Below are positions 305-28,095 of a stretch of DNA of 31,363 nt, one piece after another. Source of the DNA: a virus; IMG/VR virus record IMGVR_UViG_3300016667_000055, positions 1-31,363 of that record; one strand, given 5' to 3'. The notes below the pieces were generated by a model. It did no database searches. It was not told the origin of the DNA and saw only the letters and a list, made by a program, of their open reading frames with translations. Numbering within the stretch: position 1 is the first letter of the stretch; each line of letters starts with the position of its first letter. Both the position numbers and the translations under genes were made by a program.

Positions 305-1329
305 TGTATAAACGACTACAAGAAGTTTCAAGCGAATTATTCGAAATAAGAAACGAATTAAATACTAAAGGTAAATCGGTAGGGTGGGATTGGAATATGT
401 TACCATACACAATAAAAGAGGGTTGCACAACGTACATAGGCGCAGCTCCTGCAAGTGGTAAAACAGAACTTTGGTTTGAGTTTTTAATAAATCTAAGTTG
501 TTTACACGGTTGGAATCATGTTGTATTTTCACCTGAAACTGGAAGCTCCGCAGAAATATTTTCAGAACTATGTTACAAGTATATCGGTAAACCTTATGCA
601 AAGCATGAAAATACAATGAGTTTATCTGAACAAGTAAGGGCAGAAAATTTTGTTAATGAACATTTTATAGTTATTGACCCAATAGATGAGGATTTAACAC
701 TTGAAAAGTTTTACGATTTAGTAGATGAGATTGAACGAAAACACGAAATAACAATTCACACAACTACGATTGACCCTTGGAATGAATTAACTGAAAACTA
801 TATACATTCAGATTTAGGACGTGAGGATAAATACTTGAGTAGAATTTTAGGATTAGCACGTAAAAACGCACGTAAAACAAACCGACATAATTGCATTATA
901 AACCACGTTCGAGACCAAGCACCTATAACAAAAGACGGACATACTTTTTACCCAATGCCAACAGCTAGAGATTTTGCAGGTGGCCAAGTATGGTTTAGAA
1001 AGGGATTAGCTGTATTGATACCTTGGAGACCACCGACTGGATTAACAGATAACAACGGAAACACGTTTGAAGAAACGGAAGTGCATTTAAAAGTTGCTAA
1101 AAGTAAACCGAAAGGCGTATCAAAAAACGGAACTTATAAATTATATTTGGACGTAGAAAAATACCAATATTACATGATTGATAGTTTTGGACGCAAAGTT
1201 TATGCACAACGAACTAAAGAAACAAAATCAAACAGCTTTCCAACTAAACTACCAAAACAAGAACCCGATATTGTAAACGGAAAAGAACTACTATCTTTTA
1301 GCGAAAAAATGAAACAAACACCTTTTTAA
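304..1329 (+). CDS. DnaB-like replicative helicase (RecA-type ATPase domain)
   Basis: Walker A GAAPASGKT and Walker B-like TTIDPWNEL are present. It lies next to the replication protein. Confidence 0.6.
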   Translation: MYKRLQEVSSELFEIRNELNTKGKSVGWDWNMLPYTIKEGCTTYIGAAPASGKTELWFEFLINLSCLHGWNHVVFSPETGSSAEIFSELCYKYIGKPYAKHENTMSLSEQVRAENFVNEHFIVIDPIDEDLTLEKFYDLVDEIERKHEITIHTTTIDPWNELTENYIHSDLGREDKYLSRILGLARKNARKTNRHNCIINHVRDQAPITKDGHTFYPMPTARDFAGGQVWFRKGLAVLIPWRPPTGLTDNNGNTFEETEVHLKVAKSKPKGVSKNGTYKLYLDVEKYQYYMIDSFGRKVYAQRTKETKSNSFPTKLPKQEPDIVNGKELLSFSEKMKQTPF

Positions 1330-1397
1330 AATTATATTATGCATTTACTGGTGAAAAATGAATATTTGATAATTAAACTAAGCAAAAACAAGAATAA

Positions 1398-1691
1398 ATG
1401 GACGAACTAAATTTAATCTCAGCGAGTGTTAAGCTGAACAACGTTTTTCTAAAGTTGAAACTATCTTTAGATGAAATCAAAGAAAAACACGGACAAAGAA
1501 CTGACTTAATAGATTCAATGGAAAGAACTTTAGTTGATATAATGGAAGTTAAAGCAACTTATTCAACACTAGAAAAAGAGTTTCGTTCTGCGGTTTCAAG
1601 TCAATATAGATTAGAACATCAAAACATGGATTTAAAATTTAAAATCAAAGACTTAGAAAGTCAACTAAAATATAAAGATGTCACGCTGTAA
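1398..1691 (+). CDS. Hypothetical coiled-coil protein
   Basis: ORF track; heptad-like charged sequence. Confidence 0.5.
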   Translation: MDELNLISASVKLNNVFLKLKLSLDEIKEKHGQRTDLIDSMERTLVDIMEVKATYSTLEKEFRSAVSSQYRLEHQNMDLKFKIKDLESQLKYKDVTL

Positions 1692-1702
1692 AAACTAATT
1701 TG

Positions 1703-1710
1703 TATATTTG
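1703..1710 (+). promoter_or_regulatory. Bacteroidota-type -7 box TATATTTG
   Basis: Matches the TAnnTTTG consensus. It lies in the intergenic region upstream of HNH gene 1. Confidence 0.5.
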
Positions 1711-1711
1711 T

Positions 1712-1798: not shown

Positions 1799-1803
1799 AT
1801 TTT

Positions 1804-2277: not shown

Positions 2278-2800
2278 AAATTGCAAAAAAGAATTTATGC
2301 CATTACGTTCTACACTTCAAAAATACTGCTTAGAATCGGAGTGCGTCCGTGTTTGGGTAGAATCCGAAAAAGCGAAACAATGGAAAAAAAAGAAAGCTAA
2401 AGCAAAGTTAGAATTAATGACTTTAAGCGACTACCTTAAATTAGCGCAAATAACTTTTAATAAATACATAAACCTACGAGATAAGGATAAACTATGTATA
2501 AGCTGTGATAAACCTATTACAGGGCGTGTAAACGCTTCGCATTTTTGGAATGCAAACAACCATTATAATGTAAGATTTAATGAAGATAACGTTCATAGTT
2601 CCTGCATTACGTGCAATCAGTTTTTATCAGGCAACCTTTTAGAATATAGAACACGACTTATTTTAAAGATAGGCATTGAAAGATTTAACACCTTAGAAGC
2701 TGAAAGTAAGCAAACACGGAAGTTTACAAAGGATGAGCTAAAAGAAACAATTAACATTTATAAATTAAAGATTAAACAATTAGAAAATGAAACCAACTAA
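2261..2800 (+). CDS. ninG: NinG/Rap-like recombination endonuclease
   Basis: N-terminal CKNCKKEF...YCLESEC; FNKYINLRDKDKLCISC; NVHSSCITCNQFLSGNLLEYR. This is the typical lambda NinG family pattern. Confidence 0.8.
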   Translation: MKKKCKNCKKEFMPLRSTLQKYCLESECVRVWVESEKAKQWKKKKAKAKLELMTLSDYLKLAQITFNKYINLRDKDKLCISCDKPITGRVNASHFWNANNHYNVRFNEDNVHSSCITCNQFLSGNLLEYRTRLILKIGIERFNTLEAESKQTRKFTKDELKETINIYKLKIKQLENETN

Positions 2801-3041
2801 AGAAACAGAAAAGAAACTACTAGCATTGTGCGGAGTGTTACCTGTACTCGCGGATTTTATCGAAGATTTAAACATGGAACACGTATTTACTAAGAATATC
2901 AAACGAAAAGCTAATTTATTACTAGAAGAAATCAGAAAGACGGACGAAGGTATTTTAAAACACACAGATATACAAAGCCAAACACAACAAATAAACATTC
3001 AGATAGCATTTAGGCAGTGGGTAAAAGAAAATTTTAATTAA
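2787..3041 (+). CDS. Hypothetical protein
   Basis: ORF track; its start overlaps the end of ninG. Confidence 0.5.
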   Translation: MKPTKETEKKLLALCGVLPVLADFIEDLNMEHVFTKNIKRKANLLLEEIRKTDEGILKHTDIQSQTQQINIQIAFRQWVKENFN

Positions 3042-3059
3042 AAAAAAGTTAAAAAGCTA

Positions 3060-3103
3060 TTGTTATTCAAAAAAGAATAGTTATATTTGTCAAACAATTA
3101 AAC
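3060..3103 (+). promoter_or_regulatory. Early promoter with spacer inverted repeat
   Basis: TTGTTATTCAAAAAAGAATA (3060-3079, containing TATTC-N6-GAATA), -7 box TATATTTG (3082-3089), then AAACAATTAAAC (3092-3103). It is nearly identical to 29801-29845. Confidence 0.6.
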
Positions 3104-3111: not shown

Positions 3112-3627
3112 ATGAAAAACTTATTTAAAGCATTGGCAGCATTTCAGCAAGAAGTGCCTGTTATTCACAAAGGAACGCAAGGCTACGGTTATTCGTACGC
3201 TGACTTACCTAAAATCTTTGAAGTGATTAACCCACTACTGCAAAAACACGGATTAGGATTCACCCAACTAATCAACGGGCAGCAAATAGTTACTATCTTA
3301 TTCCATTGTGAAAGTGGTGAAAGTATCGAAAGTAAAACCGATATACCAATGATTCAATTAAAAGGAATGAACGATTATCAGTCTTTTGGTTCGGGAATCA
3401 CTTATTATCGTAGATACTGCCTTTCAACTATTTTAGGAATCGTAACCGATAAAGACACGGACGCTGCAGGTGAGCAAGTAAAAAACGAAACAAAGAAACC
3501 TAAGATTGAAGGTGAACGCTTCTTAAAAGCCATTGAAGCTATCCGAGCAGGTGAATATACTGCTGAACAGCTACAAGAAAAGTTTGATTTAAACGAAGTA
3601 CAAAAGAAATCATTGTTATTAGTATGA
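3112..3627 (+). CDS. erf: ERF-family single-strand annealing protein
   Basis: FQQEVPVIHKGTQGYGYSYADLPKI...QSFGSGITYYRRYCLSTILGIVTDKDTDA matches the ERF family pattern. Confidence 0.8.
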   Translation: MKNLFKALAAFQQEVPVIHKGTQGYGYSYADLPKIFEVINPLLQKHGLGFTQLINGQQIVTILFHCESGESIESKTDIPMIQLKGMNDYQSFGSGITYYRRYCLSTILGIVTDKDTDAAGEQVKNETKKPKIEGERFLKAIEAIRAGEYTAEQLQEKFDLNEVQKKSLLLV

Positions 3628-4394
3628 ATTCAAAAGTAATTTTATTTGATGCTGATAGTCTTCTTTATCAATCAGTTTATAAAGTAATTACGTTTTCTGA
3701 AATTCGTGAAATGATTGAAGAAGGTAGATTAAGATTTGAAATAGAAATGGAGATACTTCAACGTGCTTATGATAGATTTGAGAAAATAACATTTGATATT
3801 CTAAATGAAATTGAAGAACATTTTACAATAAATAAGACAATGTTTTTCTTTACTAAGTGTAAAAACAATTTCAGAAAAGAAATATATCATTTGTATAAAG
3901 CCAATAGAAAAACACGAAATAAATGGGTAAATGAACTTCGTAACTATATGCTTCAATTTTTAGAAAATTCTTTTGCTCACGATGTTTATGAAGCTGATGA
4001 CTTAATTTATTACAACGCTCAATTATTAAACGTAGAAGATTATATTATTTGCTCAATTGATAAAGATTTAAAACAAATAGAAGGTTTACACTTTGATTAT
4101 TATCAGGAAAAAAAATACGATGATAATGGAGAAGAATATAAAGTTCGCAAAGGTTTTAAATATATGACTAAAACGGATTGTGAAAATTTACTTTGTGAAT
4201 TGCTTTTAGTTGGTGACACAAGCGATAATATCAAAGGGGTAAAAGGAATTGGAGAAATAAAGGCAAAGAAGATTATTTACTCAAAAAATTCTACTTACGG
4301 AAAGTTTAAAGCCATTTGTGAAGCATATAAAAGCGAATCTGAAATATGGAAGGAAAAGTTAAGAATGAATTATAAACTATTAAAATTTCAATAA
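3624..4394 (+). CDS. 5'-3' exonuclease / flap endonuclease (FEN, RNase H-like)
   Basis: FDADSLLY, YKANRK, EADDLI, IDKDL and the H3TH-like GDTSDNIKGVKGIGEIKAKK motif are present. Confidence 0.8.
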   Translation: MNSKVILFDADSLLYQSVYKVITFSEIREMIEEGRLRFEIEMEILQRAYDRFEKITFDILNEIEEHFTINKTMFFFTKCKNNFRKEIYHLYKANRKTRNKWVNELRNYMLQFLENSFAHDVYEADDLIYYNAQLLNVEDYIICSIDKDLKQIEGLHFDYYQEKKYDDNGEEYKVRKGFKYMTKTDCENLLCELLLVGDTSDNIKGVKGIGEIKAKKIIYSKNSTYGKFKAICEAYKSESEIWKEKLRMNYKLLKFQ

Positions 4395-4492
4395 TGAATA
4401 AAATGGCAAAAGACGAAGAAATAATCGAAAAGATTAAACAACGAGTTGAAGAATGTAGAGAGTATTATAACGATTTAATAAAAAACTTATGA
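4394..4492 (+). CDS. Small hypothetical protein (32 aa), hand-found
   Basis: ATG overlaps the upstream stop (TAATG) and its TGA overlaps the next ATG (ATGA). It exactly fills the gap between neighbouring genes. Confidence 0.4.
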   Translation: MNKMAKDEEIIEKIKQRVEECREYYNDLIKNL

Positions 4493-5373: not shown

Positions 5374-5604
5374 ATGGAAAAGAGAGACAACAGCGGTGTA
5401 TTGTTCACTAACGACAAAAGACAAAAAGAAACACACGCACACTATCAAGGTAAGGCAACAATCAATGGAGTTGAGTATTACGTTTCAAGTTGGGTAAAAG
5501 ACGGAGCAAAAGGTAAATATCAAAGTCTAAGTTTCAAACCAGTTCAAGAAACAGCGAAACAACCTCAAAAGAGCGGATTTGATGACTTTTTAAATGGCTT
5601 ATGA
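5374..5604 (+). CDS. Hypothetical protein
   Basis: ORF track; tightly coupled to its neighbours. Confidence 0.5.
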   Translation: MEKRDNSGVLFTNDKRQKETHAHYQGKATINGVEYYVSSWVKDGAKGKYQSLSFKPVQETAKQPQKSGFDDFLNGL

Positions 5605-5804
5605 TAGAATCACACGTATTAAGCAATATAAACGATATAACGCGGAATTTAATTAATGTATATATTCAAAAACACGGAATAACATTAAACGCATTTTCTA
5701 AGTTAGTCGGAATTAGACAACCTATATTATTCAAGTTTATGAACTACCAAAATAATATGAGTACAAAAACGATTGAAAAAATAGGTAAATTTTTTAACAA
5801 TTAA
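5601..5804 (+). CDS. Small HTH DNA-binding protein (XRE-like)
   Basis: ITLNAFSKLVGIRQPILFKFMN...STKTIEKIGKFF resembles helix-turn-helix. Confidence 0.45.
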   Translation: MIESHVLSNINDITRNLINVYIQKHGITLNAFSKLVGIRQPILFKFMNYQNNMSTKTIEKIGKFFNN

Positions 5805-5966: not shown

Positions 5967-6305
5967 ATGAAAGATTTATTTTACAGCTGCCCTGAATGCG
6001 ATGGGTGGGGATTCGTAACTATTGATTTGAACGATACGATTATTCCGTACGAACAAAACCCTATTGACTATGAATGCATGGCATGTAGTGGCAAAGGAAA
6101 GGTACTACATGAAGACGAATACCAAATGAAACTAGATGGTGTTACAGAAATGATTGAGGGAATGAAAACACGGATTGAAGGACTTTCACGAATAGTAATG
6201 AAGAGTGAAAACCCTGATTTATACATTGAGCGATTAAAAACTTTATCCTGTGGTTTATACCGATTAGAACAATATAAACGAAAATTGCTTAAATTAGCAT
6301 GGTGA
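5967..6305 (+). CDS. Zinc-finger protein (DnaJ-type CxxCxGxG motifs)
   Basis: CPECDGWG and CMACSGKG motifs. Confidence 0.5.
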   Translation: MKDLFYSCPECDGWGFVTIDLNDTIIPYEQNPIDYECMACSGKGKVLHEDEYQMKLDGVTEMIEGMKTRIEGLSRIVMKSENPDLYIERLKTLSCGLYRLEQYKRKLLKLAW

Positions 6306-7113: not shown

Positions 7114-7509
7114 ATGGCAAGGAAAAGACGAACGAAAGCTGAAATACTAGCAGCTAAAAGCGAAGGATTAGGAGATACAGTAGAAAAGGTTTTAGAAGTT
7201 ACTGGAATATCAAAAGTAGCTAAATGGTTATTAGGTGAAGATTGTGGATGTGATGAACGCAAAGCAAAGTTAAATGAGTTATTTCCGTATAAGAAACCTT
7301 TATGTTTAGAAGAAACTGAATTTAGTTACTTAGATGAATGGTTTAACAGAAACACGGACAAAGTAACACCTATTGAACAAATTGAACTATTTAAAATTCA
7401 TTCTAGAGTATTTCAAGTAAGAAACGAACCTACAAGCTGCCCAAGTTGTGTGAAAACACGAATCGAAGACTTAAGAAAGGTTTACAAGCAGTACCAAGAT
7501 GAACAATAA
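7114..7509 (+). CDS. Hypothetical Cys-containing protein
   Basis: ORF track; CGCDE and CPSC motifs. Confidence 0.5.
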   Translation: MARKRRTKAEILAAKSEGLGDTVEKVLEVTGISKVAKWLLGEDCGCDERKAKLNELFPYKKPLCLEETEFSYLDEWFNRNTDKVTPIEQIELFKIHSRVFQVRNEPTSCPSCVKTRIEDLRKVYKQYQDEQ

Positions 7510-7639: not shown

Positions 7640-8074
7640 ATGCCAATACCTACACCAACAAAAGGAGAACATAAAAAAGATTTTGTTCAAAGATGCGTAA
7701 CAGATGAAAAAATGAAGTCTGAATATGAAGATATAGACCAACGTTTAGCAGTTTGTAGTTCAGCATTCGAAGAACGTTTAGCATCCGAAAAGATTAGTTT
7801 TGATTACGATGAAACTTTAACAACTGACAAAGGGATGAAACTTGCAAATAAGTTTATTTCAGAGGGTGCGGATGTTTATATTATTTCAGCAAGGCAACAA
7901 AAAGACGAAATGTTAAACCGTGCTAAAGAGTTAGGTATTCCTGAAAGTAGAGTATATGCAACTGGAAGTAACAAAGCTAAAATTCAAAAAGTTAAAGATT
8001 TAGGAATCACTAAACACTACGACAACAACACGGATGTAATTAAAGAACTTGGAGAAATAGGTAAATTAATTTAA
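7640..8074 (+). CDS. HAD-superfamily phosphatase-like protein
   Basis: DxDxT motif FDYDETLT; IISARQ; C-terminal YDNNTD. Confidence 0.55.
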   Translation: MPIPTPTKGEHKKDFVQRCVTDEKMKSEYEDIDQRLAVCSSAFEERLASEKISFDYDETLTTDKGMKLANKFISEGADVYIISARQQKDEMLNRAKELGIPESRVYATGSNKAKIQKVKDLGITKHYDNNTDVIKELGEIGKLI

Positions 8075-8354: not shown

Positions 8355-8676
8355 ATTTTTCCCTAACTTACATAGAAGTTGTATAAGGTTGAACTTCACA
8401 AAAACAACCGCTCGAAATAAATGCTTGTTATAAAATCCCGCAATGTTTTTGCTTAACAACGGGTACTGCATACCGAAAGGTTATAAAAACAAGTGAACCA
8501 AAATGCCAAGTGTGAAAACACGAATAAATAAGAAGTGGTCGCAGAGGGAAGTGTTATTATCGGGCTAACCTTATATTAGGTTAAAATACTGCAAGTTGGT
8601 ATATGCAGTATAAAAGCGAAGCTATAACCAAGAATAAAAAAAAAGGTTTAAATTTACCAAAAACACGAATTAAATC

Positions 8677-9184: not shown

Positions 9185-9757
9185 ATGGAAATATGGCAAC
9201 AAATAAAAGGATTTGAAAACTTATATAAGATTTCTACCTACGGAAGAATTAAAAGTTTGGGAAATGGTAAAAGCACTAATTCTAAAACAAAATTTGAAAG
9301 GATTTTGAAAAGCAATTATTCTTCAACTGGATATGAAAAGATAAAACTTTTCAAAGACGGCAAAAGATATTATTTTTCAGTTCATAGATTAGTAGCTCAA
9401 ACTTTTTTATCAAACGATAAAAACAAAAAAGAAGTTAATCATAAAGACGGAAATAAAGCAAATAATAATGTGTCTAATTTGGAATGGGTAACTTCAAGTG
9501 AAAATCAATTACACGCTTTTAAAAACGGATTGCAAAAGAGCAAAATGGGTAAAGACCATATTCAGTCTAAAAGTGTAAGGCAATTAGATTTAAATGGAAA
9601 TGTAATTCGTACATTTGAAAGCATTAAACAAGTTCAAAGAGAATTAGGATTTAATACATTTGGAATAATTAAGTGTTGTAAAAAAGTAAAAAAATACAAT
9701 ACTGCGTATAAATTTAAATGGGAATATGATAATAACAAGTGCTATACGGAAGATTAA
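9185..9757 (+). CDS. HNH homing endonuclease (NUMOD4 / HNH_3 / C-terminal DNA-binding module, I-HmuI-like)
   Basis: EIWQQIKGFENLYKISTYGRIKS; HRLVAQTFL...VNHKDGNKANNNVSNLEWVTSSENQLHA. It is inserted within terL sequence. Confidence 0.85.
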   Translation: MEIWQQIKGFENLYKISTYGRIKSLGNGKSTNSKTKFERILKSNYSSTGYEKIKLFKDGKRYYFSVHRLVAQTFLSNDKNKKEVNHKDGNKANNNVSNLEWVTSSENQLHAFKNGLQKSKMGKDHIQSKSVRQLDLNGNVIRTFESIKQVQRELGFNTFGIIKCCKKVKKYNTAYKFKWEYDNNKCYTED

Positions 9758-10925
9758 CGCCTTAAAGAAACGGATTAAGATAATCCAAGGCGGTACTTCC
9801 GCTATTTAACCCCCTATGAATTAAGTAGTAGGGGGTGACAATGCAGGAAAAACTTATGGTATACTTCCTATACTAATCACAAAGGCTGCTACATATCCAC
9901 GAATGGAAATAAGCGTAGTTGCTGAATCAATACCTCATTTGCGTAGAGGTGCGTTAAAAGACTTTCTAAAAATAATGAAAGAAACGGGGCGCTACTTTGA
10001 TGAACGGTTTAATAAGTCACTTTTAAGATATGAGTTTGCAAATGGTTCTGTAATAGAGTTTTTTAGTGCTGATGACAGTTCTAAATTAAGGGGTGCAAGG
10101 CGTGATGTACTGTACATAAACGAATGTAACAACGTAACCTTTGAATCTTACAACGAACTTGCAATACGTACAAAGAAAGAAGTCTATTTAGACTTTAACC
10201 CAGCAAATGAATTTTGGGTGCATACGGAACTAAAAGACGAACCCGATAGCGACTTTCTTATTTTAACCTATAAAGACAATGAAGCTTTAGATAATAGTAT
10301 TGTTCAACAAATAGAAAAAAATCGCTTAAAAGCCGAAACAAGCGCATACTGGAGTAACTGGTGGCGTGTTTATGGATTAGGTGAAATAGGAATGCTTGAG
10401 GGCGTTATATTCAGCAACTGGAAAATAATTGACAAGCTACCAACCGAAGCTAAGTTAATAGGAATCGGTTTAGACTTCGGATATACAAATGACCCGACTG
10501 CAATAATTGAAGTTTACAATTATAACGGAACACGGATACTCAATGAATTAAAGTATCAAACAGGAATGTTAAATTCAGACATCGCAAAAATACTACCAAA
10601 AAACGTGGTGGTATATGCAGATAGTTCCGAGCCTAAATCAATAGATGAAATAAGACGCTATGGAATAACGATTAAAGGCGTTACAAAGGGCAAAGACAGT
10701 ATTAATTATGGAATTGATGTAATACAACAACAAGAATATTTAGTAACCTCACAAAGCGTTAATTTTATTAAAGAACTTAGAGCATACTGTTGGGATGTAG
10801 ATAAACACGGAACACGCTTAAACAAACCTATCGACAATAATAACCACGGAATAGACGCATGGCGTTATCATGAAATGGAAACACTAGGTTTAAAACGCAA
10901 TTACGGAACATATAATATACGTTAA
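9726..10925 (+). CDS. terL: Terminase large subunit, reading frame interrupted by two in-frame TAA codons (9807, 9822) inside the Walker A region
   Basis: The same frame encodes MIITSAIRKINALKKRIKIIQGGTSAI*PPMN*VVGGDNAGKTYGILPIL...GARRDVLYINECNN...NPANEFWV, which follows the PBSX/Terminase_3-like pattern. No start codon lies between the second stop and the GKT codons. Confidence 0.75.
9795..9836 (+). other. 42-nt intervening cassette in the terL P-loop (hairpin plus two stops); exact boundaries ambiguous within the flanking GGN GGT repeat
   Basis: Hairpin CCCCCTA (9810-9816) / TAGGGGG (9829-9835). It is flanked by GGCGGT (9789-9794) and GGGGGT (9831-9836), which are 42 nt apart. Confidence 0.6.
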
Positions 10926-11105: not shown

Positions 11106-11828
11106 ATGAAGTTAGAATTAGTTATTCCAACAACGCTTAGTGAAATACCATTAAAGCACTATCAAAAGTTTTTAGCAATAGCCGAAAAGACGAATGATGA
11201 AGTATTTTTAGCAGAAAAAATGATTGAATGTTTTTGCGGTATTGAATTAAAACAAGTCGTAAAACTACCTTACAAAGAAATTGAAAACCTAAGCGTTCAT
11301 TTTGGCACGTTATTCGAGAAAAAGACGAACTTCAAAAACAGATTTACAATAGCAGGAAAAGAATTTGGATTTATTCCTAATCTAGAAGAAATAAGCTGGG
11401 GTGAATACATAGACTTAGAAGCTAATATAAGCGATTTAAAGACGTTTCACAAAGCAATGGCGGTTATGTATCGACCTATCGTAGAAAAACACGGAGACAA
11501 ATATAAAATAGAACCTTACGAAAGTTCTGTTAACTATGCTGAAGTAATGGAATATGCACCTTTAGATATTTGTTTAGCAGCAAAGCTTTTTTTTTGGAAT
11601 TTAGAAAAAGAGTTATTACAGGCTACCCTACATTATTTGGAGAGGGAGATAATGAAAAGCAAGAAATTGAAAACGAGTTTAGCGAAAGAACTCAATTTAG
11701 CAAGCAATGGGGATGGTATCAATCAATATATGCAGTCGCTAAGGGAGACGTCACTAGATTTGATGACGTTACCAAGCTTCAACTTACAACAGCACTTACC
11801 TTCCTTACTTTCGAAAAACAAAAATTAG
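11106..11828 (+). CDS. Tail assembly chaperone-like protein (zero-frame product)
   Basis: ATG 11106 is preferred over the alternative GTG start at 11049. An internal T9 slippery tract and an overlapping -1 ORF resemble the G/GT arrangement. The family call is weak. Confidence 0.45.
   Translation: MKLELVIPTTLSEIPLKHYQKFLAIAEKTNDEVFLAEKMIECFCGIELKQVVKLPYKEIENLSVHFGTLFEKKTNFKNRFTIAGKEFGFIPNLEEISWGEYIDLEANISDLKTFHKAMAVMYRPIVEKHGDKYKIEPYESSVNYAEVMEYAPLDICLAAKLFFWNLEKELLQATLHYLEREIMKSKKLKTSLAKELNLASNGDGINQYMQSLRETSLDLMTLPSFNLQQHLPSLLSKNKN
11588..11594 (+). promoter_or_regulatory. Candidate -1 frameshift heptamer T TTT TTT
   Basis: X XXY YYZ in the zero frame of 11106..11828, within the T9 run at 11587-11595. 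Confidence 0.45.
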
Positions 11829-11875: not shown

Positions 11876-12330
11876 GTTACTACGGAATACTAAATATAAT
11901 CAAATCAGAATTAGAATCTACAAACTTGGTAAATACCGTTACAGAGGGCGATATATTTAGAGTTGATTTATCTAAACAAACGATTTTCCCTTTAGCTCAT
12001 ATACTTGTAAACACTGCAACTTTTGAAAGTAATGTTATAAGGTATAATATTTCTATTATCGCTATGGACGTAGTAGATATATCAAAAGACGAAACAACGG
12101 ATATTTTCATAGGCAACGACAATGAACAAGACGTGTTGAATACACAAATAACAATGTTAAACCGTGTTTATGAAAAACTAATTAGGGGCGATTACTTTTT
12201 GAATTTAGGAATTATAGACGGTAACCCAACGTGTGAACCATTTATAGAACGATTTGAGAATAATTTAGCAGGTTGGACAATGACCTTTGATTATTTAGTC
12301 AACAACGATATGACAGTTTGCAATGAATAG
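11872..12330 (+). CDS. Hypothetical structural protein
   Basis: ORF track; located in the structural block. Confidence 0.5.
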   Translation: MSYYGILNIIKSELESTNLVNTVTEGDIFRVDLSKQTIFPLAHILVNTATFESNVIRYNISIIAMDVVDISKDETTDIFIGNDNEQDVLNTQITMLNRVYEKLIRGDYFLNLGIIDGNPTCEPFIERFENNLAGWTMTFDYLVNNDMTVCNE

Positions 12331-16307: not shown

Positions 16308-16474
16308 TAAAGAATATAATTGAAATGTTGAAGCTAGATAGCTTTAGTGGTGTTTCTGAAAATATAGAAATAGCAAAGGGAAAATACGACTTAAAGACGG
16401 ATGTAAAAGGAATCTGGAACCAAGCAATGCGCGAATTTAAACTAAAAAGAAATGGCAGAAAAAAGGGTAATTGA
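16304..16474 (+). CDS. Small hypothetical protein (56 aa), hand-found
   Basis: ATGA overlap with the upstream stop. It overlaps the next gene by 23 nt. Confidence 0.35.
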   Translation: MIKNIIEMLKLDSFSGVSENIEIAKGKYDLKTDVKGIWNQAMREFKLKRNGRKKGN

Positions 16475-18575: not shown

Positions 18576-19157
18576 ATGGAAAAGAAAATAATCGAGCTAA
18601 TTATAGATGAGAATGATTTACAAACTGGAATTCATGCAGTATCGGTAGTTCATTCACCTGCAATAGAGGAAAATTTTATTGCGTTATCAAAACACGAAGT
18701 AGAACTAAAAGAAGTTGACGCAGAGAAAAAGATTTTAATGGGTGCCGCTTTAGTTCCTAACAAACAGATTTTACGTGCTGACAAAGACGGAAAAGGATAT
18801 TACATATATTTCAGTGAGGACACTATCAAAAAGGCATCAGAGTTGTTCTTAATGCGCTCAAATCAAAACAATGCTACCTATGAACACAAAGAAAAATTAA
18901 ACGGTATGTCAGTTGTTGAAAGTTGGGTAATTGATAACCCCGAAATGGATAAATCTAAAGAATACGGATTTAGCTTACCTAAAGGAACTTGGATGATTTC
19001 AATGAAAGTAAACAACGAGGATATTTGGAAAGACGTAAAACTAGGTAAGGTTAAAGGCTTTTCAATCGAAGGTTATTTTGCTGATAAATACGAAATGAGC
19101 CAAGAGAAAAACGAACGCGAAGAAATAATTAATAAATTAAAAGATTTGCTTAAATAA
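18576..19157 (+). CDS. XkdF-like putative prohead serine protease
   Basis: ILMGAALVPNKQI...YEHKEKLNGMSVVESWV...GTWMISMKV...GFSIEGYF resembles the PBSX XkdF family. Confidence 0.55.
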   Translation: MEKKIIELIIDENDLQTGIHAVSVVHSPAIEENFIALSKHEVELKEVDAEKKILMGAALVPNKQILRADKDGKGYYIYFSEDTIKKASELFLMRSNQNNATYEHKEKLNGMSVVESWVIDNPEMDKSKEYGFSLPKGTWMISMKVNNEDIWKDVKLGKVKGFSIEGYFADKYEMSQEKNEREEIINKLKDLLK

Positions 19158-19348
19158 TGGCTAATAAGATTCCATATTATATAAGGAGAATTGAAAAAGC
19201 AACGGTTGAAAACACGGATGTATTCATACTAGACAATAATAGCGTAACAGCTCAAAGTATAACATACGATAATTTATTAATTCAACTTCAAGAACAAATA
19301 CAAGTCCCAACAGATTTTAAACCTTTATTTTTATTGCAAGGATGTTAG
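19157..19348 (+). CDS. Hypothetical protein
   Basis: ORF track. Confidence 0.45.
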   Translation: MANKIPYYIRRIEKATVENTDVFILDNNSVTAQSITYDNLLIQLQEQIQVPTDFKPLFLLQGC

Positions 19349-19647
19349 GAAACGCGAGAATAAAACCAAGTGCGACAACACTTACAACACTATATACAGC
19401 TTCAGCGGATTGCGTGATTAGTTCTATTTCTATTTGTAACTTAGGAGCAACAGCAACTACTTTTAGAATGGCAATAAGACCTTTAGGAGCAGAAATAAAT
19501 GATGCTCATTATTTGTATTATGATTTACCAATAGACGGTAACGATACGTTTATTTTAACTGGTGGTGTTGTACTCAAAAACACGGATGTAGTTTCTGTAT
19601 ATTCAGGAAATGCAAACTTATCTTATAACATATTTTATACGACATAA
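19342..19647 (+). CDS. Hypothetical structural protein
   Basis: ORF track; coupled to the fibre gene by an ATAATG junction. Confidence 0.45.
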   Translation: MLGNARIKPSATTLTTLYTASADCVISSISICNLGATATTFRMAIRPLGAEINDAHYLYYDLPIDGNDTFILTGGVVLKNTDVVSVYSGNANLSYNIFYTT

Positions 19648-21056
19648 TGGCTCAGAATAGCGCAAAAGGAAGTTCATATATAACACCAAGTTTAGATAAC
19701 CTAACCGATGTTACTATTGCAAGTGCAACTACTAACCAAGTATTAACTTATAACGGTTCTCAATGGGTTAATTCAGCTACGCAAGGCGATATGTTAAAAT
19801 CTGTTTATGATTCAGATAACGACGGTGTTGTAGATAGCGCAGCAAAAGAAGTTTTACTTGTAAGAAACAATACAGGTTCAACTATTCCAAAAGGTTCAGC
19901 TGTTTATGTTAACGGAGCGACAGGGCAACTACCTACTATCGCACTTGCCGACGCAGACACGGAAGCTACAAGCTCAAAAACAATAGGTTTAACTTTAACG
20001 TCAATCAGTAATAATTCAAACGCATATATTATTATATCTGGATTATTCGAAAACGTAGATACAAGTGCTTTTACAGACGGTGTTACATTGTGGTTAAGTT
20101 CAACAGCTGGTCAAATGGTTGCGACTACACCACCTGCAAAACCTGCTAATTCTGTATTTATTGGTTATGTAGCTCACGCTCACCCAACAACTGGAAAAAT
20201 AGTAGTTGCGATTCAAAACGGATATGAATTAGATGAACTACATAATATAAGTATTACTTCACCTTTGAATAACGATGTATTAACTTATAATTCAACAAGT
20301 GGACTTTGGGAAAACGTTCCAAGTGGCGGTTTAATGCCACCTGTCACAGCACATGAAACATTTAGGGGAGTAACATATTCAAACAATTCAACAACAGATA
20401 CAACTTCGGGTGGTGTAACGCTAGGTACAACAGCATCAACGATAGCGCGTTCCGTAGCTTCAACAAACTTTGCTACTAAACAAATTCGAAAAGGTTATTA
20501 TGGTTCGGTAGTTTCAGCTGGTCGTTATACAGGGGTTCGAGGTTCAACATTACTTTGGTATTTAGGTGGTGGGTTTCGATATGTTTGTGAAGTTTATATT
20601 TCAGATACTGCATACGGAAGTGGTTGTAGGCAGTTTTACGGAATGATAGGACAAACAACGGATTTAACTTATTCGGATTCTGTAACGGTTGCGTCAATGC
20701 TTAATGTAATTGGAGTAGGTTCAGATGCTGCGGATACTAATTTGCAAGTATTCCATAATGATGGTTCAGGAACTTGTACAAAAATAGACTTAGGAGTTAA
20801 TTTTCCTGCAAATAGAACGGCAGGAGCAGCGTTAACTACAACTTATTCAATAGAACTTTATAACGGTAACGCATCAAGTCAAATAATTTACAAGGTAACA
20901 AATAACGAAACTGGAAGTGTTGCTGATGGAACGTTAACAACGAATTTACCTTTAGATACGCAAGGGTTAAATTTTTGTGCGTCGCGTTGTATGGGAGTAG
21001 GAATTACAAATACAGGGCAGTTTGATTTATCATTATTAGGGGTTTATAGTTTATAA
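19647..21056 (+). CDS. Tail fibre / receptor-binding protein
   Basis: Repeated L-D-x-L-x-[DN]-[VI] ... VLTYN...W motif near aa 16 and aa 195. Ser/Thr/Gly-rich beta-type sequence. Confidence 0.5.
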   Translation: MAQNSAKGSSYITPSLDNLTDVTIASATTNQVLTYNGSQWVNSATQGDMLKSVYDSDNDGVVDSAAKEVLLVRNNTGSTIPKGSAVYVNGATGQLPTIALADADTEATSSKTIGLTLTSISNNSNAYIIISGLFENVDTSAFTDGVTLWLSSTAGQMVATTPPAKPANSVFIGYVAHAHPTTGKIVVAIQNGYELDELHNISITSPLNNDVLTYNSTSGLWENVPSGGLMPPVTAHETFRGVTYSNNSTTDTTSGGVTLGTTASTIARSVASTNFATKQIRKGYYGSVVSAGRYTGVRGSTLLWYLGGGFRYVCEVYISDTAYGSGCRQFYGMIGQTTDLTYSDSVTVASMLNVIGVGSDAADTNLQVFHNDGSGTCTKIDLGVNFPANRTAGAALTTTYSIELYNGNASSQIIYKVTNNETGSVADGTLTTNLPLDTQGLNFCASRCMGVGITNTGQFDLSLLGVYSL

Positions 21057-21299: not shown

Positions 21300-21491
21300 A
21301 TGGCGAATAAAGTACTAAGTCCCAAAGGTGGGCGTAGGGGTTGTCTATGTAAAGACGGAACTTACTCAAAGAAATGTTGTGACGGAACACTAGAAGCACA
21401 AGGAATCGGTAAAACAGCTGGTACAGGAACAGATAACGTAACAGTGACAGAAAACGACGGTGTAAGAACAATAGTGCGTCAGAACTCATAA
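21300..21491 (+). CDS. Small Cys-rich protein
   Basis: GCLCKDGTYSKKCCDG motif. Confidence 0.45.
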   Translation: MANKVLSPKGGRRGCLCKDGTYSKKCCDGTLEAQGIGKTAGTGTDNVTVTENDGVRTIVRQNS

Positions 21492-21529: not shown

Positions 21530-21910
21530 ATGAACACAAGAAAAACAGTTTACAATAAGTTATTTACTGAAAAGACGGAGTTAGCAAAACACGAAGTTGA
21601 GTTAGGTGCTGCACAGGATTTAGAAAAAGAATTAGTTAATATAGTTAATTTACAAAACCCAATAGCACAAAATATAGATAGACTTACAAATTTAGATGCT
21701 TCATTAAAAGCAGAAAAAAAATTAGCTAATGATAATTTAAATAAATTAAATTCATCTTATTCAAGTGCAGTTGCTTTACACGATAAACTTAAAAAAATGC
21801 AAAATGAATTAGGTGTTAATTTACCAATAGTTGAAACTGCATTTAATAGATTAAAAGGTGCTGAAAGTGATTTTAACGATTTAAAAACTTTATTAAATCA
21901 AATTAAATAA
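21530..21910 (+). CDS. Coiled-coil hypothetical protein
   Basis: ORF track. Confidence 0.5.
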   Translation: MNTRKTVYNKLFTEKTELAKHEVELGAAQDLEKELVNIVNLQNPIAQNIDRLTNLDASLKAEKKLANDNLNKLNSSYSSAVALHDKLKKMQNELGVNLPIVETAFNRLKGAESDFNDLKTLLNQIK

Positions 21911-21918: not shown

Positions 21919-22509
21919 ATGAATACAAATCAAATATTAAACAAAGTTCGTGTTTTACTTGGATTGGAAGTAAAATTAGAACAAATGAAGTTAGCGGATG
22001 GTGTAACAGTTTTAGAAGCTGAAGCATTCGAGCCTGAAATGGAAGTTTTCGTAGTTACGGAAGACAACCAAAAGATACCAGTTCCTGTTGGTGAATACGA
22101 ACTAGAAGACGGACGTATCTTAGTAGTTGAGGTTGAGGGTATCGTTAAAGAAGTTAAAGAAGCACCAAGCGAAGAAGAAGTAGCACCTATGGAACAAGAA
22201 GCGCCTGAAGTTCCTGTTGAAGCAAAAGAAGTTACAACACCAACTCCAAAGAAAACTATCGAAAGCGTAGTTAAAGAATCTTTCTTTTCAGAAATCGAAG
22301 CATTGAAAAAAGAAAACGAAACATTGAAAGCTGAACTTTCTGCATTGAAAACACCAGTTGTCGAGGAAAACACGGTAACTGAATTAAGCGAAGAGCCGAA
22401 ACCTATTTCTTTTAATCCAGAGAATACAAACCCAGTTGAAACTATTAAATACGCTACAAAAAGAGAGCGTTCAATAATGGATTCAGTATTGGAAAAATTA
22501 AACAAGTAA
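21919..22509 (+). CDS. Scaffolding-like protein
   Basis: Acidic, Glu/Pro/Val-rich with a coiled-coil C-terminus. It lies immediately upstream of the capsid gene. Confidence 0.5.
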   Translation: MNTNQILNKVRVLLGLEVKLEQMKLADGVTVLEAEAFEPEMEVFVVTEDNQKIPVPVGEYELEDGRILVVEVEGIVKEVKEAPSEEEVAPMEQEAPEVPVEAKEVTTPTPKKTIESVVKESFFSEIEALKKENETLKAELSALKTPVVEENTVTELSEEPKPISFNPENTNPVETIKYATKRERSIMDSVLEKLNK

Positions 22510-24206: not shown

Positions 24207-24245
24207 CATTTAGAAACACAAACACGGATTGAACGTTTAATTAAT

Positions 24246-24578: not shown

Positions 24579-26334
24579 CTTACATATATTAAATTTAGTA
24601 AAATACGAAGCTCCTACAATTTCTGAAAACAAAAGAAATGACTGGGTAACGTATGGAGAAAATAACGAATATTTCAATTTCCTTATTGAACGCTATAAAA
24701 ATTCTACGACAAATAACGCGATTATAAACAATATAAGCCGTTTAATTTATGGTCGTGGACTATTTGCTATTGACGCAAATAAAAAGCCGAATGAGTACGC
24801 TCAAATGATGGCGTTATTTAACCAAGACTGTTTGAGAAAATTAGCGTTTGAATTAAAAGCTTTAGGTCAGTGTGCTATTCAAGTTCACTATGATAAAAAC
24901 CATAAAAAGATTTTAAAAGCTTATCATATTCCTGTACAACTTTTAGCTCCTGAAAAGTGCAATAAAGACGGTGAAATTGAAGCTTATTATTATTCTGATA
25001 ATTGGGAAGACGTCAAGAAATATGCACCTAAAAGAATAAGCGCATTTGGTTATTCAAATAACGAGGTTGAAATACTTTATATTAAGCCTTATAGCTTAGG
25101 AATGAAATATTTTAGTTATGTTGATTATCAAGGCGCAATTAGCTATGCATTACTAGAAGAAGAGGTAGCAAATTATTTGATTAACGAGGTTCAAAATTCT
25201 TTTTCAGGAACTAAAATTGTAAACTTTAATAACGGAGTCCCAACGCCTGAACAACAAGACCAAATTACAAGTCAAGTTTTAGGTAAGTTAACAGGTTCAA
25301 ATGGGCGAAAGGTTATCGTTTCATTTAACGACAATGTAGAAACACGAACAAGCGTTGAGGATATACCTTTAAACGATGCACCTGACCACTATACATATTT
25401 AAGCGAAGAGTGTTTACGCAAAATTATGCTAGGTCACAATGTAACTTCACCTTTGCTTTTTGGAATTGCTTCAAGTAATGGGTTTAGTTCGAATGCAGAT
25501 GAGTTAAAGAACTCTACTATATTATTCGATAACATGGTTATAAAGCCATTTCAAGACCTTTTGATAAGTGGGTTAGACAGAATATTAGCTTTTAACGGAA
25601 TATCGCTTAAATTGGCGTTTAGAACGTTACAGCCTTTAGAATTTACTGACTTAGAAAACACGCAAAACGAAGAACAAATTGCTGAAGAAACAGGAACGAT
25701 GTTAAGCAAAGATTCTGTAATTGCACAAGCTTTAATTGATTTAGGCGAAGACGAACCCGAAAACGCTATTTTAATAGACGAAAGCGCAGTTGACTATGAT
25801 AACGATGACAAAGAGAATGAAACGCTTTCTAAAGAGCTAAAACCGTCTTTATTTAGCAAACTAGTTAACTTAGTTTCAACAGGTGATAACCGTCCGAATA
25901 TTAGAAGTAACCAAGATGAGGTTATTGAAGGTATTAAATTCTTAACTCGATATGTTTACGCAGGACATACTACGGAAAAAAGCCGTGAATTCTGCAAACG
26001 AATGATTGACGCTAAAAAAATATATCGTAAAGAAGATATAATTAAAATGGGTACTCAATCAGTCAATGAAGGTTGGGGTCCAAATGGTACAGATACATAT
26101 TCAATTTGGTTATACAAAGGCGGAGGTAATTGCAATCATCGTTGGAATAAACGTGTTTATGCAACATTTAGCGGTAAGGCTATTGACGTAAACAGCAAAG
26201 AATTAAAACAAGTTGCGGTTCGTAAAGCTGAGAAATTAGGTTATGTAGTTAAGAATGCCCCAAAGGTAAGCACACTACCAAAGGATATGCCTTACAACGG
26301 ATTTTTACCTACAAATAAAATATACGGGAAATAA
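24571..26334 (+). CDS. Portal protein fused to a MuF/SPP1 gp7-like minor head domain
   Basis: N-terminal WVTYGENNEYFNFLIERYKNSTTNNAIINNISRLIYGRGL is portal-like. C-terminal TEKSREFCKRM...GGGNCNHRW is MuF-like. Confidence 0.6.
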   Translation: MNNLHILNLVKYEAPTISENKRNDWVTYGENNEYFNFLIERYKNSTTNNAIINNISRLIYGRGLFAIDANKKPNEYAQMMALFNQDCLRKLAFELKALGQCAIQVHYDKNHKKILKAYHIPVQLLAPEKCNKDGEIEAYYYSDNWEDVKKYAPKRISAFGYSNNEVEILYIKPYSLGMKYFSYVDYQGAISYALLEEEVANYLINEVQNSFSGTKIVNFNNGVPTPEQQDQITSQVLGKLTGSNGRKVIVSFNDNVETRTSVEDIPLNDAPDHYTYLSEECLRKIMLGHNVTSPLLFGIASSNGFSSNADELKNSTILFDNMVIKPFQDLLISGLDRILAFNGISLKLAFRTLQPLEFTDLENTQNEEQIAEETGTMLSKDSVIAQALIDLGEDEPENAILIDESAVDYDNDDKENETLSKELKPSLFSKLVNLVSTGDNRPNIRSNQDEVIEGIKFLTRYVYAGHTTEKSREFCKRMIDAKKIYRKEDIIKMGTQSVNEGWGPNGTDTYSIWLYKGGGNCNHRWNKRVYATFSGKAIDVNSKELKQVAVRKAEKLGYVVKNAPKVSTLPKDMPYNGFLPTNKIYGK

Positions 26335-26876
26335 TGGCTGAAGCACTACTCATAACGCGAAATGACTTAGTACGTTTAACAGCGTTGAACGGAAACACGG
26401 ACACGGATAAATTTATTCAGTTTATCAAAATAGCGCAAGATATACACGTTGAGAATTATCTAGGCACTCAATTAATTACTAAGATTAAAGATTTAATTCT
26501 AAGTAACGATATTGAACTCCCTGAATTTTCTGAATATAAAGACTTATTAGAGCTTCATGTTAAACCAATGGTTATCTATTGGGCAATGGTTGAATATTTA
26601 CCGAATGCAGCATATACAATCGCAAATAAAGGTATTTACAAGCATAGTTCCGAAAACGCGGAAAATGTAGATAAGTTAGAAGTTGATTTTTTAACTAACA
26701 AATATTCTAATATTGCAAAGGAATATACTGAAAGATGCATTGATTATATAATTTATAGACAGGATTTATTTCCAGAATACAACACAAATTCAAACGGGGA
26801 TACGTTTCCAAGTGATATTAATAATTACGGAGGCTGGGTTTTAATTTTGTTAAGTATTTTTAATTTATATATATAA
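26334..26876 (+). CDS. Hypothetical head-tail connector-like protein
   Basis: Positioned after the portal. The pattern call is weak. Confidence 0.4.
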   Translation: MAEALLITRNDLVRLTALNGNTDTDKFIQFIKIAQDIHVENYLGTQLITKIKDLILSNDIELPEFSEYKDLLELHVKPMVIYWAMVEYLPNAAYTIANKGIYKHSSENAENVDKLEVDFLTNKYSNIAKEYTERCIDYIIYRQDLFPEYNTNSNGDTFPSDINNYGGWVLILLSIFNLYI

Positions 26877-26888
26877 GCATAAGCAAAT

Positions 26889-26984
26889 ATGAAAGAAGTT
26901 AAAACATACAAACCAAAAGACGAAAACGTCAAGAAGCTACTAATTTATTTGAATAAATTAAAAGAAAATAACAATGACAAATGA
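26889..26984 (+). CDS. Small hypothetical protein (31 aa), hand-found
   Basis: Open frame that fills the gap and overlaps the next ATG by 11 nt. Confidence 0.3.
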   Translation: MKEVKTYKPKDENVKKLLIYLNKLKENNNDK

Positions 26985-28095
26985 AAACGGTTGGGGCGAT
27001 GGTTCTGTAAACAACGCAATAGGTTGGGGACAAGGGGCAAATAATGCTATTAGTTGGGGTAAATCGCATTTAGATTCATGGAGTGGAGCAACTGATATAG
27101 ACGGTGGTAATGCGCCTGTAAACACAGTTGCACCTGCATTGAGTGGAACAGCACAAGAAGGACAAACTTTAACTTGTTCAACAGGCACTTGGACTGGAAA
27201 CCCAACGCCTACATATACCTATCAATGGAAACGAAATAATAGTAATATCGGAAGTGCAACTAATTCAACTTACACACTAGTAACTGCAGACGTAGGTCAA
27301 TCAATTAAATGTACGGTTACAGCTACAAATGCAATAAGCGCGGTTAATGCGGATTCAAACACGGTAACACCAACAAGCTCAGTTGATGCAGATGCACAAG
27401 CATTCATAACAGCGGCAGGAATAACAGATAATACTCAAAAAAGTGCTCTTAATCAATTAGTAGTTGACTTAAAAGGCTATTCAATTTGGACAAAGTGCAA
27501 AGCGATATATCCAATAATAGGTGGCACATCTTCGGCTCATGCGGTTAATCTTAAGACTCCAGGCACTTATAATTTGACTTTTGGTACTGGATGGACGCAT
27601 AGTTCTAATGGGATGACTTCATTGAATACTTATGCTCAAACTGGAATACAACCTTCAACAGTACTTGGATTAGATAATTCGCATTTAAGTTATTTTACAA
27701 CTGGTGGTATTGATGCAACTGCAGTGTGTATGATAGGAGCGTATAATGCACCTAACAGGCTTGCTCTTTATGCTCAAGGTCTTTATGGTGTAAATAGTGG
27801 ATCATGGTCAAGTTATACCTATTCAGGAACTGGAGTAAAATTTAGGGTAATTAGTAGGCTTTCTTCAACAGTTCATAAATTTGCAAATAACGGAACAATT
27901 CAAAGTGCTACATTAAGTTCAAGTGCAAGACCAACAGCAAACATAGAACTTGCAAGATTAGGTGGTTTTGGAAGTGATTATTTTAATGGGATATGTAAAT
28001 TTGCATCTGTTGGAGATGGTTTAACAGATACTGATATAGCCAATTTTAATACTGCCGTTACAACTTACCAAACAGCATTAAGTAGATATAATTAA
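26974..28095 (+). CDS. Fibre or adhesin-like protein with an Ig-like repeat
   Basis: NNAIGWGQGANNAISWG repeats. GQTLTCSTGTWTGNPTPTYTYQWKRN motif typical of Ig-like surface repeats. Confidence 0.45.
   Translation: MTNENGWGDGSVNNAIGWGQGANNAISWGKSHLDSWSGATDIDGGNAPVNTVAPALSGTAQEGQTLTCSTGTWTGNPTPTYTYQWKRNNSNIGSATNSTYTLVTADVGQSIKCTVTATNAISAVNADSNTVTPTSSVDADAQAFITAAGITDNTQKSALNQLVVDLKGYSIWTKCKAIYPIIGGTSSAHAVNLKTPGTYNLTFGTGWTHSSNGMTSLNTYAQTGIQPSTVLGLDNSHLSYFTTGGIDATAVCMIGAYNAPNRLALYAQGLYGVNSGSWSSYTYSGTGVKFRVISRLSSTVHKFANNGTIQSATLSSSARPTANIELARLGGFGSDYFNGICKFASVGDGLTDTDIANFNTAVTTYQTALSRYN

Follow-up and report, generated by a model that had tools for sequence, protein, structure and literature searches.

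What kind of signal is carried by a nine-nucleotide word that recurs along one strand of a phage genome, in all three reading phases of its genes? The question arises from IMG/VR record IMGVR_UViG_3300016667_000055, a phage genome some 31 kb long whose genes are all co-oriented, and which was analysed here over its full length of 31,363 nucleotides (hereafter, the window). A first-pass annotation had drawn attention to the word AAACACGRA and proposed that it acts at the level of DNA or RNA. We find that selection maintains AAACACGRA (in looser form, A-R-A-S-ACG-R-A) as a strand-specific signal, borne by the sense strand throughout a large uncultured family of Flavobacteriia-type phages. Codon-aware null models, a ranking of words in 12 genomes, the conservation of individual sites and the usage of reading phases all support a signal at the DNA or RNA level.

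Exact counting over the whole window gives 13 copies of AAACACGGA on the + strand and one on the - strand, at 2346-2354, just as the first-pass annotation had reported; its + strand coordinates are likewise right except for 17746, where the copy begins at 17747. Its list of AAACACGA copies is accurate in what it names but incomplete, since those at 18690 and 21587 were missed, and every AAACACGG[T/G], AACACGGA and longer shared word that it listed is present. AAACACGRA as a whole has 21 copies on the + strand and 2 on the - strand. In dinucleotide-preserving shuffles the GGA form is expected 0.46 times and the GRA form 1.16 times, both strands summed; the former value is in line with the earlier estimate of well below one chance copy per strand. 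The related words AAAGACGRA, AGACACGGA and AAATACGGA are likewise enriched and strand-biased, and the loose form A[AG]A[CG]ACG[AG]A matches the + strand 41 times. The copies and their variants are as follows, with the encoded residues where a site is translated:

739..747, + strand: core AAACACGAA in the helicase gene, K-H-E
1485..1493, + strand: core AAACACGGA, K-H-G; kept in 15/20 aligned relatives
2712..2720, + strand: core AAACACGGA in NinG, T-R with the rare CGG codon; AAACACGRA kept in 29/30 relatives through a synonymous CGG/CGA swap
3244..3252, + strand: core AAACACGGA in ERF, K-H-G; identical in 17/18 relatives
3910..3918, + strand: core AAACACGAA in the FEN gene, T-R
5670..5678, + strand: core AAACACGGA, K-H-G; relatives mostly have AAACACGAA (K-H-E), so that the word is kept in 10/11 and the amino acid changed
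6166..6174, + strand: core AAACACGGA, T-R with CGG
7350..7358, + strand: core AAACACGGA, N-T-D
7454..7462, + strand: core AAACACGAA, T-R
8516..8524, + strand: core AAACACGAA, non-coding
8661..8669, + strand: core AAACACGAA, non-coding, 7 nt upstream of the terS ATG (8677)
10803..10811, + strand: core AAACACGGA in terL, K-H-G
11487..11495, + strand: core AAACACGGA, K-H-G
17747..17755, + strand: core AAACACGGA, N-T-D
18690..18698, + strand: core AAACACGAA, K-H-E; identical in 46/60 relatives, 99th percentile of 9-mer conservation
19210..19218, + strand: core AAACACGGA, N-T-D
19578..19586, + strand: core AAACACGGA, N-T-D
21587..21595, + strand: core AAACACGAA, K-H-E; identical in 26/42 relatives, 97th percentile
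24220..24228, + strand: core AAACACGGA, shortly before the ATG at 24246; translated as T-R from the alternative GTG start at 24195
25340..25348, + strand: core AAACACGAA in the portal gene, T-R
26393..26401, + strand: core AAACACGGA, N-T-D
931..939, 2936..2944, 5497..5505, 9443..9451 and 16393..16401, + strand: variant AAAGACGGA
18783..18791, 21351..21359, 21571..21579 and 29516..29524, + strand: variant AAAGACGGA
3453..3461 and 19955..19963, + strand: variant AGACACGGA
260..268, + strand: AAAGACGAA, a variant matching A[AG]A[CG]ACG[AG]A
4409..4417, 7124..7132, 7901..7909 and 10233..10241, + strand: variants matching A[AG]A[CG]ACG[AG]A
11186..11194, 11321..11329, 12085..12093 and 26916..26924, + strand: variants matching A[AG]A[CG]ACG[AG]A
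2346..2354, - strand: AAACACGGA, antisense to the conserved NinG peptide ECVRVWVES
21947..21955, - strand: AAACACGAA, isolated

Because the copy at 2346..2354 lies antisense to a conserved peptide and recurs at the same place in relatives, it is probably held there by the NinG protein and is not part of the signal. The isolated - strand copy at 21947..21955 is probably due to chance.

Since all window genes lie on the + strand, and since that strand is 39% A, we compared the + strand count with four codon-aware nulls: a synonymous shuffle within genes, a synonymous shuffle genome-wide, a third-position shuffle that preserves the protein plus all dinucleotides, and a shuffle of codon order. Their means range from 0.3 to 2.1 copies of AAACACGGA and their maximum is 6, against 13 observed; in every null, 0 of 1000 runs reached 13. 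The first-pass annotation had offered codon-shuffled genes with protein and dinucleotides kept as a check that could refute it, and such genes do not reproduce the count. When all 7-mers were scanned with family-wise calibration by shuffled genomes, AAACACG scored z = 7.4, compared with a null maximum of 4.0. As had also been claimed, the word occupies all three reading phases and non-coding DNA: the 21 core copies divide 8 : 6 : 5 among the phases with 2 more in non-coding DNA, so that 19 of the 21 lie inside open reading frames (ORFs), where they encode K-H-G/E, x-T-R or N-T-D/E according to phase. The whole genome uses only 7 CGG codons, 3 of them within AAACACGRA copies. The word CAGGAAC (often as TTCAGGAACT) provides a contrast. 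It has 7 copies on the + strand (15916, 20767, 21424, 24009, 25205, 25691 and 27824) and 3 on the - strand, and the + copies all stand in one phase and encode S/T-G-T in structural proteins; CAGGAAC is a protein- or codon-level repeat and no DNA signal.

Comparison with cultured Flavobacteriia phages that have genes in common with the window points the same way. Nonlabens P12024S has 0 copies of AAACACGRA, Flavobacterium Fpv5 has 4 against 3.7 expected, and hattifnatt9-1, which has a minor-strand block, has 1 against 1.2 expected. Because Fpv5 is also one-directional and AT-rich and shows no excess, an effect of composition is ruled out once more. Thus the idea that there is no signal, only a by-product of amino-acid, codon or dinucleotide composition or a dispersed repeat, can draw on the A-richness of the + strand, on xAC-GGA codon pairs that supply part of the ACGGA excess, and on a maximal-order Markov model that absorbs the excess trivially, but it is effectively refuted by the four nulls, the family-wise z score, the unbiased word ranking and the site conservation described below, the use of every phase and of non-coding DNA, the dissimilar flanks, the phase-locked CAGGAAC and the comparable Flavobacterium phages that show no excess. 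AAACACGRA is a nucleic-acid-level signal, which does not arise incidentally from codon usage or protein sequence.

Enrichment in relatives had been named as a further check, and it is found in portal-linked contigs, in helicase-linked contigs and in a divergent sister lineage. At the DNA level the window has no match among deposited phages. By protein, its closest cultured relatives are the Nonlabens phages P12024S/L (portal 36%, capsid 31%); TerL is 54% identical to that of Flavobacterium psychrophilum phages, and the helicase about 32% to those of Flavobacterium columnare and Riemerella phages. A Flavobacteriales host is likely. Public metagenomes hold more than 7900 portal homologues at E < 1e-30, all of them metagenomic, on contigs of up to 30-32 kb. 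Sequencing run SRR6423793 contains the exact portal gene of the window. Eighty portal-linked IMG/VR contigs (788 kb, 66-92% portal identity) carry 355 copies of AAACACGRA on the + strand and 30 on the - strand, with the GAA form predominating. The corresponding numbers in 37 helicase-linked contigs (303 kb) are 300 and 81, and the - copies there amount to a few sites, fixed by conserved peptides, that enter the count repeatedly.

When all viral contigs were scanned for the pair pattern, dispersed enrichment was found almost solely in relatives of the window phage. One of these relatives, L143, represents the divergent lineage; its portal and NinG are 24% and 52% identical to those of the window, and its early gene order is unchanged. 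In this lineage (80 contigs, 31-41% GC), nearly all contigs longer than 9 kb carry 5-19 copies on the + strand and 0-3 on the - strand, and the top 7-mer is often AAACACG or AAAGACG. When words were ranked in 12 diverse genomes by over-representation against a synonymous shuffle, the top words at K = 4, 5, 6 and 7 were all sub-words of the motif. An apparent word-free subclade proved to be an artefact of short contigs lying over a depleted zone, about -2.5 to +7 kb around the portal gene.

Individual sites are conserved as well. We compared orthologous sites with ordinary 9-mers in relatives at about 70-80% nucleotide identity, and 10/10 testable sites were above the median 9-mer conservation (mean percentile 0.81, Wilcoxon p = 0.002). 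The G/A swap at position 8 is tolerated even where Gly becomes Glu, as at site 5670, and other individual sites are gained and lost among relatives. The word is thus kept through a change from Gly to Glu, and sites are kept yet also turned over, which argues for selection on particular sites plus density, and on the word rather than on the protein. Individual AAACACGRA sites are under purifying selection, with degeneracy at positions 8 (R) and 4 (S).

The signal ends where the word ends. In a sequence logo drawn for the family from 397 non-redundant AACACG contexts, information is confined to A-AACACG-R-A, and no conservation is found within 20 nt on either side. Because the flanks carry no information, AAACACGRA is a bare linear 9-nt word, and neither a repeat element nor a hairpin; a dispersed repeat or mobile element is ruled out in the same way. 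Core density is 0.7/kb over the window, with 1.27/kb in the early region (1-8676) and 0.48/kb in the packaging, structural and lysis region; early regions generally have about 1/kb, and some contigs up to 1.5/kb. Spacing is Poisson-like, with long gaps at tail-fibre and receptor-binding genes, and a coefficient of variation of about 1 rules out regular spacing.

This distribution also bears on a regulator binding site or promoter operator, which had been among the first candidates and is now disfavoured. For the window sites, the distance to the next start codon is random (Kolmogorov-Smirnov p = 0.29); there is no fixed upstream placement, and sites fall anywhere within ORFs, so that a promoter or operator is ruled out by position. 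The late promoter word of T4, TATAAATA, which is read by gp55, resembles AAACACGRA in being a short strand-specific word that may overlap the end of the upstream gene in any phase, and both T4 and the window phage encode a small sigma-like protein. However, promoter words stand at a fixed short distance upstream of genes, whereas AAACACGRA sites are spread uniformly through ORFs.

What, then, might read the word? We consider it possible, with a probability of roughly 30%, that AAACACGRA is recognised on the phage chromosome by a strand-specific DNA enzyme, probably a site-specific nickase. The closest described phenomenon is the nick-associated 9-mer of certain phages, a class of motif that the first-pass annotation did not consider. 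In tf, a phage of P. putida, the 9-mer TACTRTGMC has 14 copies on the top strand only, and in Rembedalsseter WACTRTGAC has 13 copies; at 13-14 copies per 45 kb, the 9-mer is restricted to a single strand, 88% of its copies lie within coding sequences at any position, and it is uneven along the genome and enriched in 61 related phages that share little nucleotide similarity, but not outside their cluster (PMC3517423, PMC11780129). Like AAACACGRA, these motifs are asymmetric 9-mers with one or two degenerate positions, on one strand and mostly anywhere within coding sequences; like it, they are enriched throughout a family and missing outside it, with partly conserved site positions and an uneven distribution. 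The likeness to the nick-motif phenotype holds in all respects visible in sequence.

A nickase acting at the word would leave localized interruptions in one strand, as in T5, phiKMV-like and tf/Rembedalsseter phages. The window is annotated with an O-like initiator fragment, a gp4/DnaB-like helicase that lacks a primase domain, NinG, ERF, a FEN-type 5'-3' exonuclease and SSB. Speculatively, nicks could serve as 3'-OH and flap entry points for the ERF annealase, the FEN exonuclease, the NinG junction nuclease and the DnaB/gp4-like helicase; alternatively, and as speculatively, they could act in packaging.

Several observations weigh against a nickase. AAACACGRA is a different word, matching neither TACTRTGMC nor CGACNNNNNCCTACTCCGG (PMC3517423), and it occurs in Flavobacteriia-type phages rather than in phages of Pseudomonas or E. 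coli; its carriers show no relationship to T5, phiKMV or tf. Its density is 2-5 times that in tf-like phages. As a proxy for nicks we used contig ends, and in 237 family contigs these are no closer to sites than random positions are, although this test is weak. In predicted RNA folds the sites are slightly more unpaired than composition-matched controls (0.689 vs 0.647, p = 0.02). Furthermore, the polarity of DNA and that of mRNA are not separable here, because all word-rich genomes are transcribed one way. AAACACGRA also differs from the described nick motifs in tolerating more variants (C/G/T at position 4, A/G at position 2) and in being missing from some close sister lineages, and any nicks at the word are putative.

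Regions in which gene direction and DNA strand part company were sought, and word-rich genomes have essentially no minor-strand genes. One candidate, positions 1-9230 of IMGVR_UViG_3300020043_001641 (L162), appeared two-directional and was rejected as a palindromic mirror-image assembly artefact: the same word spacings occur at 732, 1055 and 1279 (+) and at 7909, 7586 and 7362 (-), in divergent ORF blocks.

A phage-encoded reader was sought among the genes common to two word-rich lineages, or common to the word-rich L421 and its word-free sisters. The sister lineages L446, L463 and L497/L498 have 0-2 copies of AAACACGRA, even though the NinG of L446 is 81% identical to that of L143 and its helicase region matches L421 at about 60-70%, and the TerL of L497/L498 matches at 66%. 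This comparison, too, counts against the nickase: no such reader emerged, as each of the shared detectable early and packaging genes has a homologue in at least one word-free relative, and a reader encoded by the host, or by a small gene that escaped recognition, would explain the gene distribution just as well. The helicase, NinG, orf 2787-3041 and ERF are rejected as readers by their homologues in L446, and TerL and its neighbours as tracking genes by theirs in L497. PDB sequence searches with NinG, orf 7114 and orf 7640 gave no informative match. Nor does a replacement word take over in the word-free relatives, since neither ACTCAGR in L446 (10 : 0) nor AAAGCAY in L497 is significant family-wise. 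In L497, AAAGCAY forms a run at 4361-4554, every 11-12 nt, in the early region directly upstream of a helicase-like match, and this run looks like origin iterons.

Next in our ranking after a DNA enzyme is a signal in mRNA, which we hold only tentatively. An RNA-binding protein or ribonuclease of phage or host would bind or process long sense transcripts at the word, and the denser early sites (about 1-1.3 copies/kb, against about 0.45-0.5 in late regions) would serve temporal control. All copy-rich genomes are one-directional with the word always on the sense strand, the sites are slightly more accessible in RNA folds, as noted above, and a linear word with no flanking structure is what a single-strand binder would need. 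Against this, there is no conserved structure, and Rfam 15 covariance models give 0 matches in the window at gathering score, where there is no tRNA or tmRNA either; the sites show neither a phase preference nor a tie to starts or stops; no RNA-binding protein or RNase candidate was identified; and cleavage inside ORFs about every kilobase would ruin the messages of the phage itself. To our knowledge, there is no described precedent in phages for an intragenic 9-nt RNA word this dense.

A further possibility, equally tentative, is that AAACACGRA is neither a nick site nor Chi but a new genome-wide polar self mark, read on single-stranded sense DNA or RNA. Such a mark, borne by the nucleic acid of a very abundant uncultured phage group, could for example let the phage escape a host nuclease or defence, or recruit a host machine, and lineages that switch host would lose the word completely. 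Its reader could be host-encoded, which would explain the lack of a tracking phage gene.

Rather doubtful, in our estimate, is a Chi-like polar signal for a host helicase-nuclease of the AddAB/RecBCD type, or another host self marker, with the word shielding linear or rolling-circle phage DNA from degradation and channelling it into recombination. Host Chi can accumulate in phages (PMC3784561), and the Chi sequence of Bacteroidota AddAB is not known (PMC2887965). Like Chi, AAACACGRA is a short polar oligomer selected for density rather than position, with turnover of sites and uniform orientation along the replicon, as is plausible for a recombination-dependent phage; one-strand over-representation of a polar oligomer, by which Chi is recognised, is found here too. 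If packaging runs from terS toward the structural genes, as this argument assumes, the strand with the word has its 3' terminus at the end presumed to be packaged last, which is the active orientation for such enzymes. The phage has the recombination functions ERF, NinG and FEN, and annotation searches named no anti-RecBCD gene; patchy presence among close relatives with no tracking phage gene fits a host-encoded reader. However, known Chi sites are G-rich 5-8-mers, whereas AAACACGRA is A-rich, 9 nt long and present at about 1/kb; one word serves lineages of 31-41% GC; and cultured Flavobacterium and Nonlabens phages do without it.

What defines Chi, moreover, is that the host chromosome carries it in excess and with a strand skew, and a scan of one genome from each of 185,579 prokaryotic species, seeded with two copies 150-180 nt apart, gave no such locus among the matches listed. 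The scan returned at least 120 loci, taxonomically scattered; among the matches listed, no bacterial or archaeal locus had copies at more than two separate places, and wherever a locus had at least three copies, they formed a local repeat cluster. About 11 loci among them are from Flavobacteriales, each with only the seed pair, a local cluster or one stray copy. A host order with Chi-like density should have dominated the list, and the host was not identified. The Chi-like candidate of the first-pass annotation is therefore weakened, though not refuted, by the lack of dispersed enrichment in the sampled bacterial loci and by the three cultured Flavobacteriia phages, which lack the word or any excess of it. 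The multi-copy loci L249, L285, L297, L307, L276 and L272 consist of tandem or clustered repeats containing AAACACGRA, with periods of about 33-42 or 165 nt; the metagenome-assembled genomes that bear them include Saprospiraceae, Crocinitomicaceae, Niabella and Nostoc, and by tblastx they are unrelated to the phage. All multi-copy matches listed in the scan are due to such local repeats.

Other polar words resemble AAACACGRA less closely. FtsK-orienting polar sequences and SpoIIIE recognition sequences (KOPS/SRS) are likewise strand-skewed, as 8-mers, and are read directionally by a DNA translocase. They are chromosomal, however, switch strand at the terminus and are read by an FtsK-family motor, whereas AAACACGRA keeps one orientation throughout the window and all contigs, and no FtsK-like gene was found in the window annotation. 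DNA uptake sequences (Neisseria DUS, Pasteurellaceae USS) share with it a length of 9-12 nt, a density of about 1/kb, a location in genes in all phases and a DNA-level drive, but they belong to competent bacteria and occur about equally on both strands, whereas AAACACGRA belongs to a phage lineage and stands about 10-20 : 1 on one strand.

We think it unlikely that AAACACGRA is a transcription signal on the non-template strand, with the sigma-like protein of the phage, or else an elongation factor, reading it in the bubble and causing sigma-dependent pausing or ops-like antitermination along long operons. Sigma region 2 and RfaH do read single-stranded non-template DNA. The word is on the non-template strand of every gene, and the small sigma-70 region-2-like protein (6382-6933) is conserved across word-rich contigs, but the word-free Nonlabens phage has homologues of this protein too, ops-like elements are as a rule few and confined to leader regions rather than found about every kilobase within ORFs, and the sites bear no positional relation to operon starts. 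Less probable still is a replication signal on the lagging-strand template, namely a preferred site for priming or helicase-primase loading in unidirectional or rolling-circle replication co-directional with transcription. One-strand polarity with roughly kilobase spacing approaches the scale of Okazaki fragments, and word-rich lineages have an O-like initiator and a DnaB/gp4-like helicase, with no primase gene found. Yet known primase recognition sites are 3-5 nt long, the spacing is Poisson-like rather than regular, and word-free relatives have helicase homologues. We therefore rank a DNA enzyme first, followed by a signal in mRNA, a Chi-like signal, a non-template-strand signal, a priming site and, last, an artefact; the remaining probability goes to something outside this list.

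Genome-wide selected, strand-specific words are rare, and Chi, KOPS, uptake sequences and phage nick motifs each exposed a directional machine that reads DNA. AAACACGRA joins a known class of features, polar words selected across a whole phage genome. We found no description of it in the literature, including in a search by sequence string, nor of any polar word in Bacteroidota-type phages. It is unusually dense at about 1/kb, where it forces K-H-G/E, N-T-D/E and T-R with rare CGG/CGA codons into proteins, and it typifies an uncultured phage group of which public metagenomes contain thousands of variants. If the word is a nick mark, the unexplained phenomenon of nicked genomes extends to Bacteroidota-type phages, with far more sites available for comparison; if it is read by the host, it may lead to the Chi of Flavobacteriia or to a different polar system in them. 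The word is also of practical use as an inexpensive sequence marker of group membership, and local gaps in its density flag recently imported modules.

The remaining annotation of the window includes terS, terL, two HNH homing endonucleases and portal, capsid and lysis genes. Its last part, 30880-31363, is an AT-rich stretch of about 500 nt with no convincing ORF, placed directly ahead of the O-like/helicase replication genes with which the window begins. This stretch may be an early control region or origin, and the arrangement suggests that the window is a complete, circularly permuted genome. An ORF of 87 aa on the - strand (8208-8471) is the only sizeable one on that strand in the otherwise non-coding gap before terS (8075-8676); if real it would be the sole leftward gene, and it contains no AAACACGRA in either orientation.

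Two late genes share the peptide (S/A)KHEVEL around a AAACACGAA copy, at 18678-18705 in the S78-type prohead protease (18576-19157) and at 21575-21602 in the gene at 21530-21910. The two copies inside these peptides are the most conserved in the family. A common N-terminal module may account for this, or both peptides may have been shaped by the word.

Three elements interrupt the 5' end of terL (9080-9903). A decayed copy of the first 63 nt of terL lies at 9080-9142, followed by an HNH/NUMOD homing-endonuclease gene at 9185-9757; the real terL start is at 9726. Within terL, at about 9799-9840, an in-frame insert of 42 nt, which contains two stop codons and a GC-rich hairpin of 9 bp, interrupts the Walker-A/P-loop coding sequence (GGTSA / insert / GKT). 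In an independent contig, L499 (3530-3760), the 30-nt core of the insert is identical and the remainder differs by one base, while the flanks differ; the relatives L194 and L483 lack the insert and read GGTSAGKT uninterrupted. A split TerL, a tiny intron and a pseudogene are alternatives, but if ribosomes took off at GCU and landed at GCA, exactly GGTSAGKT would result, and the insert is a candidate for programmed translational bypass linked to the homing endonuclease. The bypass cassette of T4 gene 60 adjoins the homing-endonuclease gene mobA, and the terL locus is alike in that a bypass-type cassette would stand beside a homing-endonuclease gene.

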